IMG/VR virus record: IMGVR_UViG_3300025608_000032
Coordinates: 1 to 51,839 of that record
Length of the DNA stretch: 51,839 nucleotides
Reading direction: 5' to 3' (one strand)
Source of the DNA: a virus
Taxonomy: Duplodnaviria; Caudoviricetes
In this document: positions 12,417-46,774 of the stretch, in pieces
Numbering within the stretch: the stretch's first letter is position 1
Layout: every line of letters begins with the position of its first letter
Position numbers and translations under genes: made by a program
Notes under the pieces: generated by a model
What the model saw: the letters and a program-made list of their open reading frames with translations, nothing else
Database searches by the model: none
Told to the model about the DNA's origin: nothing

Positions 12417-12493
12417 CTCTCCCTAGCTCAACAGGATAGAGCAACGGCCTTCTAAGCCGTAGGTTACAGGTTCGAATCCTGTGGGGGAGGCCA
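12417..12493 (+). tRNA. tRNA-Arg(TCT)
   Basis: Cloverleaf; anticodon arm ACGGC-CTTCTAA-GCCGT; encoded CCA. Confidence 0.95.
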
Positions 12494-12507
12494 ATTATAG
12501 GAAGATA

Positions 12508-12753
12508 ATGAAACCTAATAAATATAATAAAGAAAGACAAAAGGATGGAATGACTGTCGAAGTTCGCAATGGTAATGTGGACAAGGCAATCAGAATTTTA
12601 AAGAAGAAACTCATTGCAGATGGTTTCTTCCAAGAGATGCGTGAAAGAACCTTTTACGAAAGTAAAGGAACCAAACGCAGAAAAGCAAAGGCATCTGCAA
12701 CTCGTAGATACAAACGAAAGATGCAGAAACGTAAAGAAGAACTTGGTTATTAA
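12508..12753 (+). CDS. rpsU: 30S ribosomal protein bS21
   Basis: VEVRNGNVDKAIRILKKKL...EMRERTFYESKGTKRRKAK. Confidence 0.88.
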   Translation: MKPNKYNKERQKDGMTVEVRNGNVDKAIRILKKKLIADGFFQEMRERTFYESKGTKRRKAKASATRRYKRKMQKRKEELGY

Positions 12754-16544: not shown

Positions 16545-16619
16545 GCGGTTGTAGTATAAAAGTATTACAGTTATCTTCCCGATAACAGATGGAGGTGCGA
16601 TTCCTACCCAACCGCTCCA
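16545..16619 (+). tRNA. atypical tRNA-Gly(TCC)-like RNA
   Basis: Perfect acceptor stem GCGGTTG/CAACCGC, U73 and CCA; no GG in D-loop, C37, T-loop TGCGATT, bulged T-stem. Confidence 0.8.
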
Positions 16620-21218: not shown

Positions 21219-21519
21219 TGCATATGCGGCAGAGGAACTAGGAAGAATTACTGGTTCCTTTCCATGTTTCAAATTTGACGAACTGAAAGAACAGTTGGTT
21301 GAGAAACATGGAGAACTGCCATTTATCTCTGGTAACGGTGCATCCAATCTATTGAATATGGAATCAAGTAAACTTGAGATTGCATCACATGGATTCTATG
21401 TATTTGTAAATCCAAAAACATATGAGTTTAGTGTGGTGTTTAGAATGGGTGAAGACATTGGGTGTGTTGTTTCTGTAGGAAAAGAAATGGGCCCAGTGTT
21501 ACAAGATACTGGAATTTAG
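21172..21519 (+). CDS. exported hypothetical protein
   Basis: Signal peptide MNKLALLLSLSLLPHSAYA. Confidence 0.7.
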   Translation: MNKLALLLSLSLLPHSAYAAEELGRITGSFPCFKFDELKEQLVEKHGELPFISGNGASNLLNMESSKLEIASHGFYVFVNPKTYEFSVVFRMGEDIGCVVSVGKEMGPVLQDTGI

Positions 21520-21521
21520 TA

Positions 21522-21552
21522 TTGACAAATACACTGTGATGGTGTATAAATA
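21522..21552 (+). promoter_or_regulatory. overlapping sigma70 and late promoter for tmRNA
   Basis: TTGACA-17-TATAAA; the -10 box extends to TATAAATA. Confidence 0.7.
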
Positions 21553-21557
21553 AAGTA

Positions 21558-21875
21558 TTCGATGATGTTGATCGAAAGGTAGTTTGGACGTGGGTGCGAT
21601 TCCCACCACCTCCACCATAGATACACCTACAACTCTGAGAGAGTAGACCGAAAGGTGAAATAGTAGGGGAAGAACGTGGTGTATCTATGATGGGGGTGAA
21701 TAGGTTCGACAGGCTAATGATTAGAGATACGGAGAATCGTCAACGCAGAAGACGTTAGGGTTGGGAGTTCTCGGCCGAAGAAGCACAAAAAGTAACTGCA
21801 AACGATAGCACTTACGCATTGGCAGCCTAATCGCTGACTAGGGTTTCGGGGTTCCTCGTAACAGAATACCCCAAC
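21558..21875 (+). ncRNA. ssrA: two-piece (permuted) tmRNA
   Basis: Acceptor piece ends CACCTCC-A-CCA (21617); paired intervening segment; coding piece starts GGGGGTG (21692) with G3-U70; tag ANDSTYALAA* at 21798-21830; ends approximate. Confidence 0.92.
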
Positions 21876-21898
21876 AAAATCCCTTACCTTGGGATCGT

Positions 21899-41388: not shown

Positions 41389-41667
41389 ATGTTTAGAATT
41401 CCTAGTTTTCATGAAGTTGAGATGACTTTTGACGAAGCTGCAAAGTGTATCACAAATCGTGGTAATGGTGACATGCTAGTTGGTATGGAAGGCATGAATG
41501 CGATTTGGGAAGACTACCTTGCTGACCAGAATGCCTTCTACAACGGCGAACAAGACGAAATGATGTATGGTGACGATGATGACTTCTTTGAACATTGGGG
41601 TTATGAGTGTAGTGCCTACAACGTTGTGTTCGAAAATATGAGTAAACTTTTTGCCCCTGCGGCGTAA
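41389..41667 (+). CDS. hypothetical early protein
   Basis: ORF after the promoter. Confidence 0.75.
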   Translation: MFRIPSFHEVEMTFDEAAKCITNRGNGDMLVGMEGMNAIWEDYLADQNAFYNGEQDEMMYGDDDDFFEHWGYECSAYNVVFENMSKLFAPAA

Positions 41668-41677
41668 GGAGAGAGAT

Positions 41678-41983
41678 ATGAAAGTTCGTAATTTCCGTTT
41701 TGTTTCTGACCCTGGCCATGGATATCTCCGTGTGCCTCTTGAAGTTCTAAAAGAGTATGGTGTGATGTTCAAGATTTCACCATTCTCATTCAAGTCTGAC
41801 AAGTTTGCATACTTGGAAGAAGACTGCGACATGGCGACATTCATTGATGCAGTTCGTGCCGTTGGTGATGATGTGAAGTTCAAAACATCCTACACCAACA
41901 ACAATGCATCATGCCGCCGTTACCCTCGTTTCCCAGAGACTATGGGTTACATCGAATATCGCAAAGAAAAATACGGTTTCTAA
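41678..41983 (+). CDS. conserved phage hypothetical protein
   Basis: SDPGHGYLRV...YLEEDCD motif. Confidence 0.8.
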   Translation: MKVRNFRFVSDPGHGYLRVPLEVLKEYGVMFKISPFSFKSDKFAYLEEDCDMATFIDAVRAVGDDVKFKTSYTNNNASCRRYPRFPETMGYIEYRKEKYGF

Positions 41984-41995
41984 GGAGAATAAGTA

Positions 41996-42193
41996 ATGAA
42001 AAATGCAATCGCTTTTATTATTGGGTTCGCTGGTTTCCTTCTTCTGATGGGTGCAGCGGGTTCTGACTGTGACGGTAAGTGCATGGAGAATGCATTGCCT
42101 CTTGGAGAGGTAATTCTCTATTCTTTGATTGGACTTGCCATGATGGTTGTTGGTTGTTTTATCGGAGGCGCTTTCAATGGTGAACGGCAGTAA
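41996..42193 (+). CDS. small 2-TM membrane protein
   Basis: AAGGAG SD; two hydrophobic helices. Confidence 0.7.
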   Translation: MKNAIAFIIGFAGFLLLMGAAGSDCDGKCMENALPLGEVILYSLIGLAMMVVGCFIGGAFNGERQ

Positions 42194-42338
42194 ATTTAGA
42201 CGTTGGATACAAGAGAAATGGTTCGAACACAAGTATGAGTGTTTGGATTGGAAGACGAAATCTTGTAAAGACGCACAAGAATACTTCAACAAGAACAAAT
42301 GGTTCTTAAAAGCTCTTTACAAACGTGAAGTAAAGTAG
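42177..42338 (+). CDS. small hypothetical protein
   Basis: FRRWIQEKWFEH...YFNKNKWFLK motif. Confidence 0.65.
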   Translation: MVNGSKFRRWIQEKWFEHKYECLDWKTKSCKDAQEYFNKNKWFLKALYKREVK

Positions 42339-42371
42339 TATATTAATAATGTGAAATGTGAGGATTATATT

Positions 42372-42692
42372 ATGCAAGTTTTGGATTTTGAAACAGATGT
42401 GAACATGAACATGAGTTCTCTACAGGGTTATGTTACAACAACCTATGAGAAACTAGTAGACACCTTTGGTGCGCCCACTTACACTGATGCAGACCCCTAT
42501 GAAAAGGTGAATGCAGAATGGACGGTTGAGGCTCGTGTCTATGACCCAGAAGACGATGATACTGTGAACGTCAAGTTCTCTATCTACAACTGGAAGACAG
42601 GAAATGTGCCTGTTGAAGAACACCAGTGGCATGTGGGTGGTTATGATTCTTATGCAAGTATCATTGCAAATCAAATTATAGGGGCAAAGTAA
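42372..42692 (+). CDS. conserved phage hypothetical protein
   Basis: SLQGY..TTYEKLV..FG.P, IYNWK and WHVGG motifs. Confidence 0.8.
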   Translation: MQVLDFETDVNMNMSSLQGYVTTTYEKLVDTFGAPTYTDADPYEKVNAEWTVEARVYDPEDDDTVNVKFSIYNWKTGNVPVEEHQWHVGGYDSYASIIANQIIGAK

Positions 42693-43108
42693 TGCCCCTA
42701 CTCCCTGCCTATTACACGACTAATAATCTCAAGAAGAGAAAGAAGAAGAAAGTCAATCCTGCCAAGTATGAGGCAGAGTGGCGTAAGCACAACAAGTTCT
42801 TGAAGTCAATTCGTAGTCCAGTAATCACACTGGATGAATACGTTGATTACTGTCATGGTCGGAGAAGTGTTACGGTAGCACGCCAGTCTCCAAAACTGGA
42901 AGCTGAGGTTCGACTCCTTGCTCCGGCGCCATATCGTAGAGAGACACCAGATATCCCAAGTGTTGGAGATATGGCTGGTGTGGCTCTAAAGAAAGAGACA
43001 CCAGTGTATACTGGCAACGCTGTCATTGGACAAGCGTATAACAAGGGTGGACTCCAAGTATTGTCTACTCAAGAAGCAAATGACCCAATGACGGGCAAAA
43101 GGAGATAA
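42692..43108 (+). CDS. conserved T4-like hypothetical protein containing a nested tRNA
   Basis: Open 138-aa ORF; LLPAYYTT N-terminus, YRRETP.IPS and YTG...QAYNKGGLQVLS C-terminus. Confidence 0.75.
   Translation: MPLLPAYYTTNNLKKRKKKKVNPAKYEAEWRKHNKFLKSIRSPVITLDEYVDYCHGRRSVTVARQSPKLEAEVRLLAPAPYRRETPDIPSVGDMAGVALKKETPVYTGNAVIGQAYNKGGLQVLSTQEANDPMTGKRR
42858..42931 (+). tRNA. tRNA-Trp(CCA) nested in a CDS
   Basis: Acceptor GTCGGAG/CTCCGGC, G73, CCA; anticodon arm CCAGT-CTCCAAA-ACTGG; T-loop TTCGACT; A8 variant. Confidence 0.88.
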
Positions 43109-43110
43109 TT

Positions 43111-43359
43111 ATGAGTGAATTGTGGGTTGAAGACGTTGAGTATCATTCGGTGAATCTAACCAAACGCTATGAACTTGACGAAGATGATGTTATCGAAACA
43201 TTTGGTTCCGTAGAGAAATTCCGAGAACTATTTGATGAAGGTGACGATGAAGCGCAGTCATATGTATATGACGGTGATTATGAAACCGATGAAGATTGGT
43301 GGACTGCAAACAAAGGTGGATTTGAAATTGACACCTCGACCTCTTGGGAGAATGAATAA
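43111..43359 (+). CDS. acidic hypothetical protein
   Basis: AGGAG SD. Confidence 0.75.
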   Translation: MSELWVEDVEYHSVNLTKRYELDEDDVIETFGSVEKFRELFDEGDDEAQSYVYDGDYETDEDWWTANKGGFEIDTSTSWENE

Positions 43360-43601
43360 TGGCTTTTGAAGTATGGAAGCAACACAAACTTGAAGATCGT
43401 ATGGAATCAGAAGCATACGATTGGGTATTGTATTGCATTGAAGAACAATTCGGTGTTTCGGATTGGGATGATTTGACTAAAGAACAGGTTGATGAGATTT
43501 ACGAATATGCACAGAGTGAAGATATCTACTTTGCTCCTTATGTAGAAAGTATTCTAATCAGTCAATGTGATAACTGGTATGAGGAGAATAACGATGGCTA
43601 A
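43359..43601 (+). CDS. hypothetical protein
   Basis: Coupled ORF. Confidence 0.7.
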   Translation: MAFEVWKQHKLEDRMESEAYDWVLYCIEEQFGVSDWDDLTKEQVDEIYEYAQSEDIYFAPYVESILISQCDNWYEENNDG

Positions 43602-44229
43602 TCATGTGCATTATTCGGTGAATATTCACCAAATCAACGATGAGGCTCGTGCAAAACTCAAAGAGATGTTTGGGCGAATTCGAACTGATAACAACTATCG
43701 TTGGTTCTCTGATATCTTTGTTGAGGGCGACTTGACATATGAAGAGACAGAGAAGTATGCGTGGACAACAGAACACATTGGCCCTAAGTGGTGTTACTTT
43801 GAAGACTTTGATGCAGATGAAAAGGAACCGTTTTTTAACGGTGAGGCGGCATGGAGCGCACCTGAGACGGGGCTAGAGAAACTACTAACTATTCTGACAG
43901 AATATGACCCTAACATCATTACATCTATTTGTTATGAAGATGAAATGCCCAACTTCATTGGTGTATCAGTCTACGAAGGCGATGAGATGTATGACGGTTT
44001 CGAAGATGAGTATGAAGAACTCCGTGATCGTGTGATTGCATCATCTGAAACCCTTACTGAAGAGTCTTGGAATGAAGACGAAGACGAATGGGTTGATGAG
44101 GACGCCGAAGACACATTCCGTGATGAAATGTGGGAAGTAATCAACGACTCACAGTGGGAACTAGTTTCTGAATGTGTTGACCAAATCAAAGCAGACCAAG
44201 CAGAGCGAGAATCAACAGTCGGATGTTGA
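43594..44229 (+). CDS. acidic hypothetical protein (DUF1281/Api92-like motifs)
   Basis: MANHV..., GPKW, AWSAP and YEDE motifs. Confidence 0.65.
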   Translation: MANHVHYSVNIHQINDEARAKLKEMFGRIRTDNNYRWFSDIFVEGDLTYEETEKYAWTTEHIGPKWCYFEDFDADEKEPFFNGEAAWSAPETGLEKLLTILTEYDPNIITSICYEDEMPNFIGVSVYEGDEMYDGFEDEYEELRDRVIASSETLTEESWNEDEDEWVDEDAEDTFRDEMWEVINDSQWELVSECVDQIKADQAERESTVGC

Positions 44230-45038
44230 CAATGAAACCAGTGGACTATAGAGTCGCTACCTTGTTTGTGCAAGAGCGTCACTATAGTCCAGTTATGCCT
44301 AAACTCACTAAACACTATTTGGGTGCTTACCAAGACGATGAATTGGTGGGCATTTTGACGTTGGGGTGGGGGACTAATCCTATGGGGACAATCAAGAAGA
44401 TGTTCCCAGAACTAACCACAGAACACTACTTTGAGATTGGTAAGATGTGCATGGATGATGCCATGCCTCGCAACTCAGAGTCGCAAATGATGGCTGGTGC
44501 AATTCACTGGATGAAGAAGAACACACCAGAGAAGATGTATCTCTACACATGGGCAGATGGGATTGTGGGTAAGCCAGGATATGTCTATCAGGCAGGCAAC
44601 TTCCTGTATGGTGGTTTCATTTGGAGTGATGTATACGTCACTGAAGAGGGTGAGAAAGTCCACTTCAGAACGATTCAACGCAAGATGAAGAAAGAGATGG
44701 GTAGGGACGATTTGAAGTATGGCCCTCGACCTAATGACGCCAAGATGGGTGAATTAGGGTTCTCTCGTGTATGGGGTAAACAGTTTCGTTATATCTACCC
44801 TATCACAAAACAGGCACGCCGTTATCTAAAATCAGACAAAACCACTATGGATTGGACACTACCATATCCAAAAGACAAAGACTTGCAATGGAAAATAAAG
44901 AAGCCAGGCGAGACAGAATATCGCTTGACAAATGAGATGCCTTATGACTATAATGGCTCCAGTGTTAGACATAATTCTAGTAATGTGAATAAGGTGATAG
45001 ACAAATATGGAAGCGCAACACTCGAACAGTTCATGTGA
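44223..45038 (+). CDS. Mom-like adenine modification (GNAT) enzyme
   Basis: HYS, EIGKMC...PRNSES, YTWADG..GKPGYVYQAGNFLYGG and K.FRYIY motifs. Confidence 0.75.
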   Translation: MLTMKPVDYRVATLFVQERHYSPVMPKLTKHYLGAYQDDELVGILTLGWGTNPMGTIKKMFPELTTEHYFEIGKMCMDDAMPRNSESQMMAGAIHWMKKNTPEKMYLYTWADGIVGKPGYVYQAGNFLYGGFIWSDVYVTEEGEKVHFRTIQRKMKKEMGRDDLKYGPRPNDAKMGELGFSRVWGKQFRYIYPITKQARRYLKSDKTTMDWTLPYPKDKDLQWKIKKPGETEYRLTNEMPYDYNGSSVRHNSSNVNKVIDKYGSATLEQFM

Positions 45039-45459
45039 TACTTTCGTGGTTCGAAATATCTCTTTTGGAACTTTGAATCAAGAAGAGTTGGCAGAGATGT
45101 TCACTGATGGACGCCTTGCCTCACACTTCTTGGAACGCCAATTGACAAAGTGGTATCCAGACTTGACATTCGTTGACAAGAAGGGTTACGACCATGTTGA
45201 TGAGCAGGGTAATAAGTATGACCAGAAGTGTTTCACTAAGGGCGGACTAGGGTTCGCACCATCTCATATGGGTGGGAAAGGACGTGTATTTGTTCAAGAA
45301 GAAGCACACGAACACGCAAGGGATATTACCTATATTTGTTGTGATATTGTGGATTTTCCTACTGTCAGAGTTAAGTTCGCTAAAGGTTCTGATCTGATTG
45401 AGGCTTATCCAAAATGTAAGATATCGTTTACTAAACGTAAGGAGTTTTTCGGTGAGTGA
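45007..45459 (+). CDS. putative PD-(D/E)XK-like nuclease
   Basis: DGR..SHFLE, GYDHVD...YDQKCFTKGG...PSHM.GKGR. Confidence 0.5.
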   Translation: MEAQHSNSSCDTFVVRNISFGTLNQEELAEMFTDGRLASHFLERQLTKWYPDLTFVDKKGYDHVDEQGNKYDQKCFTKGGLGFAPSHMGGKGRVFVQEEAHEHARDITYICCDIVDFPTVRVKFAKGSDLIEAYPKCKISFTKRKEFFGE

Positions 45460-45787
45460 TGAAAAGTATGTTGTTGTAACAACAATATCTCAATTCAAGA
45501 TTCGTTATGCAGTTCCAATGAGCGAACTACAGAAGGAAAACCCAGATGCACCAGTTGACCCTCTATGGGCCTTGGATGGTGTGACTTGTCAAGACTATGA
45601 AGAGTTCTCACAAGAACACTTGGGTGAGGTAATCACTGATTGGTGCGTAGAGGATGAAGAACAAATCTTAGAACGGTTTGACAGAGAGAATGACTATCTT
45701 GCTGGTTGGGGCAAAGAACAGAAACTAAACAATATTAGACACAATGGAACATCACATGAACGAAGAAATGCCAAAGATAATTCATGA
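45452..45787 (+). CDS. hypothetical protein
   Basis: AAGGAG SD, GTG start; EFSQEHLGE motif. Confidence 0.7.
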   Translation: MSDEKYVVVTTISQFKIRYAVPMSELQKENPDAPVDPLWALDGVTCQDYEEFSQEHLGEVITDWCVEDEEQILERFDRENDYLAGWGKEQKLNNIRHNGTSHERRNAKDNS

Positions 45788-46232
45788 ACCTCTATTTGAG
45801 TCAGACAAGATAGAGGCACACTATTCAGAACAGGATGGTGTCCCTGTTAAATATGTCTGCACATCTGCGCTGGGTGGGCAAGACTTTGCCGTGGATATCT
45901 TCTATCGTGAGACTCCACATCCAGAGTTCGGCAACAGATACTTTGGTATCTATCGTAACATGTATGCGGCAGGCGCTCAGATTATGATTACAAATGCAGA
46001 CGTGATTGAAGAGTTGGAGTTTGGGATGGCTAAAGATTCTGACGGCAACCTTCACTATTCTACACATCGTCATGACTATAAAGTTTTGGACAATGGGAAT
46101 ATGATTGACGGTGGACGTGCATATTCTCGTTTCAGTGGTGTTGTAGAATATTTCAAAGTAAAAGACGGTAAGTTTGTCAATGATGAGGCCGAATGGCCAT
46201 TTCAAGACAGTGGACTTGAGGATATGTCATAA
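45756..46232 (+). CDS. conserved phage hypothetical protein
   Basis: DIFYRETPHPEFGNRYFG, YS.HRHDY and MIDGGRAY motifs. Confidence 0.8.
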   Translation: MNEEMPKIIHEPLFESDKIEAHYSEQDGVPVKYVCTSALGGQDFAVDIFYRETPHPEFGNRYFGIYRNMYAAGAQIMITNADVIEELEFGMAKDSDGNLHYSTHRHDYKVLDNGNMIDGGRAYSRFSGVVEYFKVKDGKFVNDEAEWPFQDSGLEDMS

Positions 46233-46774
46233 TGTATGTTCGATTGGGACAATATCAGGATGATGGCAGTGAACGTGAAACTCATGTTGTAATCCATCAC
46301 TATGATACATGGAATATGGATGAAAGTCTTGCACATGTAGTTCTGCCTATGTTGAAACAGTTGAGAAAGACTAAACATGGCGCTCCCTTTGTGGACATGC
46401 CTGACCGTCCAGAACACCTACAGTGTTATAAAGAACCAGAAGATTATGAAACCGACAAGTTTCACTTCCAAGCATGGGATTGGGTTCTGGACGAAATGAT
46501 TTTTGCTTTTGAAACAAAAGTAGGAGAACTCTCTGATTGGGAAGAACAGTTTCATGAATACAGTGAAGTCCCAGACCTTAAGTGGGTGGGAGTAGGGCCT
46601 GCACAATTACGTCTATTCCCAGACGATGATGGGGAGAAGGAAGACTATGAATTCTATGAGATGAAGTCTTCTGGCAAATCAAAAATTGATTGGGATGGAC
46701 GTAAAAAATATCAGGAAAGGATTTCTAATGGGTTCCGACTATTCGGGAAGTATTACGAAAACTTATGGGATTGA
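46232..46774 (+). CDS. conserved phage hypothetical protein
   Basis: YDTWNMD, LPMLKQL, WDWVLDEMIFAF and GFRLFGKYY.NLWD motifs. Confidence 0.8.
   Translation: MYVRLGQYQDDGSERETHVVIHHYDTWNMDESLAHVVLPMLKQLRKTKHGAPFVDMPDRPEHLQCYKEPEDYETDKFHFQAWDWVLDEMIFAFETKVGELSDWEEQFHEYSEVPDLKWVGVGPAQLRLFPDDDGEKEDYEFYEMKSSGKSKIDWDGRKKYQERISNGFRLFGKYYENLWD

Follow-up and report, generated by a model that had tools for sequence, protein, structure and literature searches.

The window analysed here is a 51,839-nt stretch of DNA from a Caudoviricetes virus (positions 1 to 51,839 of IMG/VR record IMGVR_UViG_3300025608_000032). The record is 37% complete and its source is a T4-like marine myophage of Melnitz-like type, the nearest cultured relative, by its ssDNA-binding protein (79.5%), being Methylophilales phage Melnitz. 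Nine tRNA-like genes are present in the window. Eight of these are intergenic and only one, the tRNA-Trp at 42858-42931, sits within a start-to-stop gene. The features of this locus, together with a tmRNA gene located elsewhere in the window, are:

42316..42344, + strand: candidate sigma70-like promoter match (10/12), the nearest good match upstream of the gene pair
42372..42692, + strand: upstream gene, 106 aa, whose stop overlaps the start of the host gene in the sequence (TAATG)
42692..43108, + strand: host gene for a 138-aa basic protein of a wide phage family, single copy in the 37%-complete record
42692..42857, + strand: conserved N-terminal block, codons 1-55, with a Lys/Arg run and two predicted helices (residues 23-39 and 47-54)
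42858..42931, + strand: tRNA-Trp(CCA), nested on the same strand, called by ARAGORN and Rfam RF00005 and read as residues 56-80
42932..43108, + strand: conserved C-terminal block, with the invariant motif of the family and a predicted beta hairpin (residues 111-124)
43111..43359, + strand: downstream gene, 82 aa, acidic, with its ATG at 43111, 2 nt past the host gene stop
21518..21876, + strand: permuted tmRNA of alphaproteobacterial type, found by ARAGORN and Rfam, phage-encoded like the tmRNA described for Melnitz

The TAATG overlap of the 106-aa gene and the host gene suggests, from the gene arrangement, that the two are translationally coupled. On the other side, the gap to the downstream ORF does not exceed 10 nt in 47 of the 52 Trp-class loci that have such an ORF. 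A Mom-family DNA modification gene (44232-45038, +) lies three genes downstream of the host gene. The run of small acidic genes at 41389-46774 (+) has a Trp content of 2.5%, against 1.4% in the rest of the window (45/1826 residues versus 164/11372, p=0.002), and this enrichment is given little weight because the region was picked post hoc.

Two of the free tRNA-like genes deserve description. The first, a tRNA-Gly(UCC)-like gene (16545-16619, +) that comes after an endolysin-like gene, scores 40.4 bits and was missed by ARAGORN; it has U73 followed by CCA, UGC in place of UUC in the T-loop, a D-loop without GG and C at position 37, and is reminiscent of non-proteinogenic tRNA-Gly. The second, a tRNA-Arg(TCT), stands immediately upstream of phage ribosomal protein S21 (12417-12753, +). 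Among non-Trp-class relatives this place upstream of the S21 cluster is taken by the family gene and its nested tRNAs (32/56 downstream neighbours), making the position a possible capture route for nested tRNAs.

The tRNA-Trp(CCA) at 42858-42931 scores 51.9 bits against Rfam RF00005 (cut-off 29) with all four stems aligned which, with the ARAGORN call, confirms the complete tRNA reported in the first-pass annotation. Its acceptor stem has 7 bp with one U-G wobble, the anticodon occupies 42890-42892, the T-stem carries two wobble pairs below a TTCGA T-loop, and G73 (42928) is followed by an encoded CCA (42929-42931). The CCA anticodon and the G73 discriminator are identity elements of bacterial tRNA-Trp. 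Positions 8 and 14 are swapped to A8:U14 (42865/42871), and the acceptor pair A6-U (42863/42922) is flipped relative to most free copies. The details listed previously (acceptor stem, G73, CCA, T-loop, A8, wobble pairs, TAATG start and 2-nt gap to the neighbour) are all found in the sequence. Translation confirms that the 138-aa ORF is stop-free through the tRNA, and the peptide quoted for it is right.

The protein encoded around this tRNA has 256 homologs (E<=0.001) among 330 candidates. The 120 homologs listed share 41-91% identity with it and are mostly full length, and a profile search found 403 family representatives at 50% identity. In the family alignment the N-block and the C-block are conserved and the middle is variable. 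Across 479 fetched loci and the window, the C-block follows in the same open frame for 346 of 349 N-block matches, and the other three run off contig ends. The N- and C-terminal halves are not separate genes, the case named beforehand as contrary to nesting, since the gene is intact and conserved with mostly full-length homologs among those listed. The AlphaFold model built on a 100-sequence alignment is of an extended protein (mean pLDDT 79.7, pTM 0.42), with pLDDT 85-97 for the N-terminal block and its two helices and with a small hairpin at the C-terminal end. The tRNA-coded residues 56-80 have no secondary structure (pLDDT 50-54 there in the first model), and the middle linker is predicted by this modelling to be unstructured.

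Searches of Pfam, PHROG, PDB sequences and Foldseek assigned no function or domain to the window protein, and ESM Atlas returned unnamed clusters only, under 0.8. The protein matched neither an integrase family nor SelB, nor any other Pfam domain. It has no match to the PHROG 27048 profile either; 6/90 relatives do match at E<=0.01, and the distant members L023 and L024 match at 1e-20 and 8e-23, so that the family appears linked to PHROG 27048 by sequence through its distant members. GTDB genomes contained one family match, a tRNA-free gene on a 6-kb MAG contig that gave no clue to the host.

Nested tRNAs are widespread in this family. Among 173 distinct family genes with DNA, 120 hold nested tRNAs and 53 hold none, in a sample enriched by tRNA-bearing queries and with at least two rows (L438, L445) cut at the 5' end. 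In a less biased sample a tRNA-derived peptide occurs in 12/149 family representatives at 50% identity, and in a control with 80 window ORFs only the host gene was positive. Distant representatives have peptides resembling other translated tRNAs, and these were confirmed on the DNA. One tRNA is present in 87 genes, two in 31 and three in 2, none of them antisense. Genes with a single kind carry Trp (58), Ala (11), Pro (11), Arg (6) or Ile (1), and those with two kinds carry Arg+Pro (13), Ala+Pro (7), Arg+Ala (5) or Ala+Thr (3); the combinations Arg+Met+Pro, Ala+Leu+Thr, Arg+Met, Pro+Thr and Met+Pro are found in one gene each. An Asp tRNA nested in one further, diverged gene brings the total to nine kinds. 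In nine sampled loci Rfam accepts each of the 16 nested tRNAs, the CCA end is encoded in 101/101 distinct nested tRNAs, and tandem copies are separated by spacers of 2-9 nt with the frame kept.

The nested tRNAs are read in all three frames, and tRNA-Trp alone in two. Among the 86 distinct proteins of the first loci, 11 have tRNA-Trp in the frame of the window (frame 1), 47 in the other frame (frame 2) and 28 have none. The window tRNA-Trp differs from a frame-2 copy at only 4/74 bases, and the two forms are related by compensating indels 10-16 nt before the tRNA and 5 nt after it. The nesting recurs in relatives with compensatory changes and so, on comparative grounds, is not due to chance. 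The tRNA-free members L118 and L263 retain what by eye are tRNA remnants, indicating that loss has happened. Comparison of the sequences thus shows a cassette that has been gained, swapped and lost, with the reading frame preserved whatever the size or kind of the cassette; aligning the homologs, as had been proposed, places the tRNA in a variable linker and finds it again in relatives. The protein tree interleaves tRNA-bearing and tRNA-free states, with weak deep support, and an AU test of whether the nested Trp tRNA arose once or several times gave p=0.09. Spill-over from a neighbouring tRNA array was considered and rejected, as a free tRNA lies within 1 kb in 0/87 tRNA-bearing loci with enough flank.

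Several individual loci are unusual. L319 is a mosaic gene whose N-half is 94-100% identical to the Melnitz type and whose first 25 C-half residues are 88% identical to the short class; judging by these identities its tRNA may be a crossover point. A nested 94-nt tRNA at L454:1630-1723 (+) combines the anticodon TAT (Ile) with a long variable arm, an unusual combination. At L278:2342-2471 (+) a short open frame holds a nested-type 78-nt tRNA-Arg, the conserved ends of the family being absent, and is possibly a decayed family copy. In L242 a tRNA-Trp of the same type lies within an unrelated 140-codon open frame, beside another tRNA, and this nesting may be chance.

The family gene is also present in culture, all four Melnitz records carrying it (58% identity). 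ARAGORN places a tRNA-Trp(CCA) within Melnitz CDS 124, so that the same gene family again has the same tRNA inside it, read there in the other frame (the frame-2 form). The complete genome has four tRNAs, of which the nested one is the sole tRNA-Trp, and a locus tag for a tRNA is missing from the record between CDS 124 and CDS 126. The tRNA is listed as gene 125 and described as matching no host or phage tRNA (PMC9004378). The searched passages of that paper do not mention the nesting, although the overlap might be visible in its genome figure or supplement.

The flanks and the middle of the gene are under different kinds of selection. Among frame-1 relatives dN/dS is 0.12-0.16 in the N-block and 0.20-0.27 in the C-block; across both Trp frames flank values are 0.12-0.27 for unsaturated pairs (flank pS >=0.2) and lower in the closest pairs. 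The flanks of 49 non-Trp pairs give 0.13/0.22, and tRNA-free family genes give 0.18. Within the tRNA segment synonymous divergence falls to about 4-7-fold below the flanks (dS 0.07 versus 0.42-0.50 over 207 pairs in frame 2, and 0.10-0.18 versus 0.43-1.19 in frame 1), and dN/dS there is 0.7-1.7 for these comparisons and 0.4-1.7 over all bins; these pairwise counts are mutually non-independent. Low dS with such dN/dS values implies that the RNA constrains the DNA and that the peptide is tolerated. The structure of the tRNA is maintained accordingly: 98.1% of stem positions are paired in 33 distinct nested Trp tRNAs, against 38-55% in slid controls, and 11/21 stem pairs change on both sides, a score reached by 0/500 shuffles. 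The anticodon, G73 and CCA are invariant in 33/33 nested Trp copies, and the 8:14 tertiary pair covaries (A:U in 30, U:A in 3). These comparisons show flanks that are selected as protein and a middle that is selected as tRNA and not as peptide. A tRNA placed in a tolerant linker, which the first-pass annotation had offered as its alternative, is what the alignment, dN/dS and AlphaFold show.

That the ORF is not translated through the tRNA, and represents two half-genes or a gene-calling artefact, is very hard to sustain. The failure to find a known domain, fold or solved relative would agree with such an artefact, but the continuity of frame in 346/349 matches, the purifying selection on both flanks, the existence of tRNA-free full-length members and the compensating indels on both sides of the tRNA upon frame change all speak for translation.

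The footprint left by this double use is not the one first proposed. A8 and the T-stem G-U pairs had been read as dual-coding compromises, and neither proves to be one, because A8:U14 also occurs in free-standing phage tRNA-Trp genes and both wobbles could be repaired synonymously to Watson-Crick pairs in the frame of the window. Of 101 tRNA-Trp contexts pulled with the A8 pattern, 86 are free tRNAs, a set that through its selection shows A8 outside genes and not its frequency. A8 does matter for frame 2, because U8 there would in most cases create UAG; 3/8 frame-1 copies have U8:A14, versus 0/25 frame-2 copies. The obstacle in the frame of the window is instead a stop codon spanning tRNA positions 6-8, which 59/69 free 74-nt copies have, and the flipped acceptor pair that removes a UGA is the better dual-coding footprint. 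The frame of the window is open in 8/8 frame-1 copies versus 8/75 free Trp copies, the stop that closes frame 2 is present in 6/8 frame-1 and 0/25 frame-2 copies, and the nested Arg frame is open in 20/20 nested versus 1/13 free copies.

How might both products be obtained from one gene? Bacterial RNase P is described as recognising a folded stem with a 3' RCCA and as preferring U at position -1 (PMC10731613), so that a tRNA with an encoded CCA within an mRNA is a likely substrate. A scan with the sigma70-like consensus found 15 sites in the window against 12.2 expected, not above chance, and none within the 5' part of the host gene; the T4 late motif is absent from the 5' half of all 57 tRNA-bearing genes checked. 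Were the tRNA transcribed from an internal promoter of its own, or supplied by late read-through transcripts that are not translated, its production would leave the protein unaffected; the scans would overlook phage promoters that depart from the consensus used, but given the two scans we regard this as improbable. A likely RNase P substrate with no internal promoter found makes it likely, from established tRNA processing, that each transcript yields either protein or tRNA. A 737-nt contig from an RNA library runs through the tRNA and both flanks, and in this contig strand, ends, level and DNA carry-over are not distinguishable; it fits an intact message. Among the RNA runs, X3 gave no aligned piece and X4 gave pieces of relatives alone, and gaps in this coverage carry no weight.

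We therefore consider it probable that the variable linker codons of this small conserved gene serve as an exchangeable, refillable tRNA cassette in a tolerant site, here holding one tRNA-Trp, and that excision by RNase P ends the message. The gene would be transcribed within an early sigma70-type polycistronic message and translated while the transcript is intact. Host RNase P would cut at 42858 and 3' nucleases would trim the other end, taking the tRNA out of the mRNA, and once it was released the message would be lost. The stop-less 55-codon 5' fragment would be cleared by the phage tmRNA, a step not specific to nesting. Ribosome traffic would be expected to compete with folding of the tRNA. 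The likeliest reason for the layout would be that the linker offers a tolerant, well-transcribed parking site amid tightly coupled genes, with free tRNA genes recombining into it to refill the cassette. The layout does not call for a dedicated control function.

The bases preceding the nested tRNAs bear on how readily they would be cut. U(-1) is found in 4/106 nested contexts versus 236/360 free ones, and for tRNA-Trp in 0/35 versus 63/76, a rarity which suggests that cutting may be slow. In addition, when the whole ORF is folded as RNA the acceptor stem of the window tRNA is absent from the lowest-energy structure, and the acceptor probability is below 0.5 in 21/57 Trp genes. A rival reading is a translation-gated release, akin to the timer of the first-pass annotation, in which ribosomes would keep the cloverleaf unfolded early in infection and faltering translation would let the tRNA be cut and the protein shut off, as a feedback switch. 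In its favour, non-optimal -1 bases occur in all large tRNA classes, and an either/or model of this kind has been put forward for selC in selB (PMC8124441). The switch gains further from the nine kinds of tRNA captured at a single site and, in the non-Trp class, from the gene's own sigma70-like motif (44/60 loci) and the downstream neighbour in the S21 cluster. Repeated capture of so many kinds at one site may exceed neutral parking.

Against a switch, U(-1) would be synonymous in only 14/109 contexts and would otherwise change the amino acid, and most of its rarity can be put down to shared ancestry and the constraint of coding. The switch also loses because 53/173 genes have no tRNA, the kind of tRNA being interchangeable in the others, and because neither the upstream Trp codon nor the phage tmRNA is specific to nesting. 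Attenuation by Trp starvation through that codon was rejected, the codon being present in 50/50 long tRNA-bearing genes, 14/18 long tRNA-free genes and 2/7 short tRNA-bearing genes. Co-occurrence of the tmRNA with nesting was likewise rejected, as a permuted tmRNA is present in 5/5 related contigs tested, of which three are tRNA-free (3/3) and two tRNA-bearing (2/2). The tolerant, refillable linker is favoured on this evidence, and we hold the translation-gated switch to be an unlikely, if serious, competitor.

The poor leader bases for RNase P, the RNA-library contig spanning the whole element and the mosaic gene L319, in which dissimilar N and C halves meet at the tRNA, might also suggest a cloverleaf that works uncut in the mRNA; it could, for instance, divert host nucleases that attack tRNAs, stabilise the message or promote recombination. 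Yet an invariant anticodon and G73-CCA, with CCA encoded in 101/101, matter only for a processed, chargeable tRNA, and the tandem spacers of 2-9 nt are those of ordinary phage tRNA arrays. We consider an uncut role a poor prospect, slightly less so than an independent promoter.

The closest known parallel is the tRNA-Sec gene selC nested in the selB ORF of Alphaproteobacteria, which describes itself as the first bacterial report (Mukai 2021, PMC8124441). As described there, a whole same-strand tRNA lies inside an ORF coupled to the next gene, is conserved but can be lost, some lineages keeping remnants (compare the tRNA-free genes and the L118 and L263 remnants here), and is assigned the same either/or processing with a nonstop mRNA, on bioinformatic grounds. 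In that system one special tRNA forms the C-terminal extension of its own elongation factor (PMC8124441), whereas the family described here, from lytic phages, has a linker within the protein, flanked by a conserved block on each side, that holds between one and three ordinary elongator tRNAs drawn from nine kinds; all three frames are used, and one tRNA switches frame. The window tRNA-Trp is followed by 59 conserved codons and hence is not the selC-in-selB system itself. A tRNA-Lys inside cox1 of Armadillidium vulgare mitochondria, as cited in PMC8124441, is likewise a full tRNA in direct orientation within a coding region whose processing competes with the mRNA, but is a single fixed case of a 60-nt tRNA in a compact organelle genome.

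Comparison can also be made with free phage tRNAs and with integrase genes. The free tRNA genes and arrays of T4-like phages share the tRNA types, encoded CCA and short tandem spacers of the nested copies, and the A8:U14 tRNA-Trp is common among them as a free gene; they differ in being intergenic, in usually having U at -1 and in usually having a stop in the nested frame. In attP sites of the SSV1 and Mx8 type, partial tRNA ends lie inside the integrase ORF. These too are tRNA-derived sequences within a viral ORF, whereas the window has a whole, covarying tRNA in a protein without an integrase domain. The openly accessible main texts searched on nested or overlapping phage tRNAs, among which only Mukai 2021 and the Melnitz papers were relevant, describe no such phage cassette. 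Relative to selC in selB, a phage linker tRNA cassette appears to be new, with strong comparative evidence and a putative mechanism.

When a tRNA falls within a CDS, annotation pipelines usually take the overlap for a mistake and discard either the tRNA or the CDS. Since both products are under selection, in 120 tRNA-bearing genes with nine kinds of tRNA, the tRNA repertoires listed for phages, and what is read from them, may be incomplete. The one precedent from bacteria was predicted by bioinformatics alone, and Melnitz on OM43 H5P1 provides a cultured pair in which the release of a tRNA by RNase P from a translated CDS is directly testable; the same pair could show whether ribosomes gate the excision. 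More speculatively, and we would not expect it, the family may be a translation-control module in which an extended basic protein, likely binding host translation or transcription machinery, is built around swappable tRNAs with ribosome-gated RNase P. If this is true, the module would free its tRNAs and turn its protein off exactly when host translation fails.
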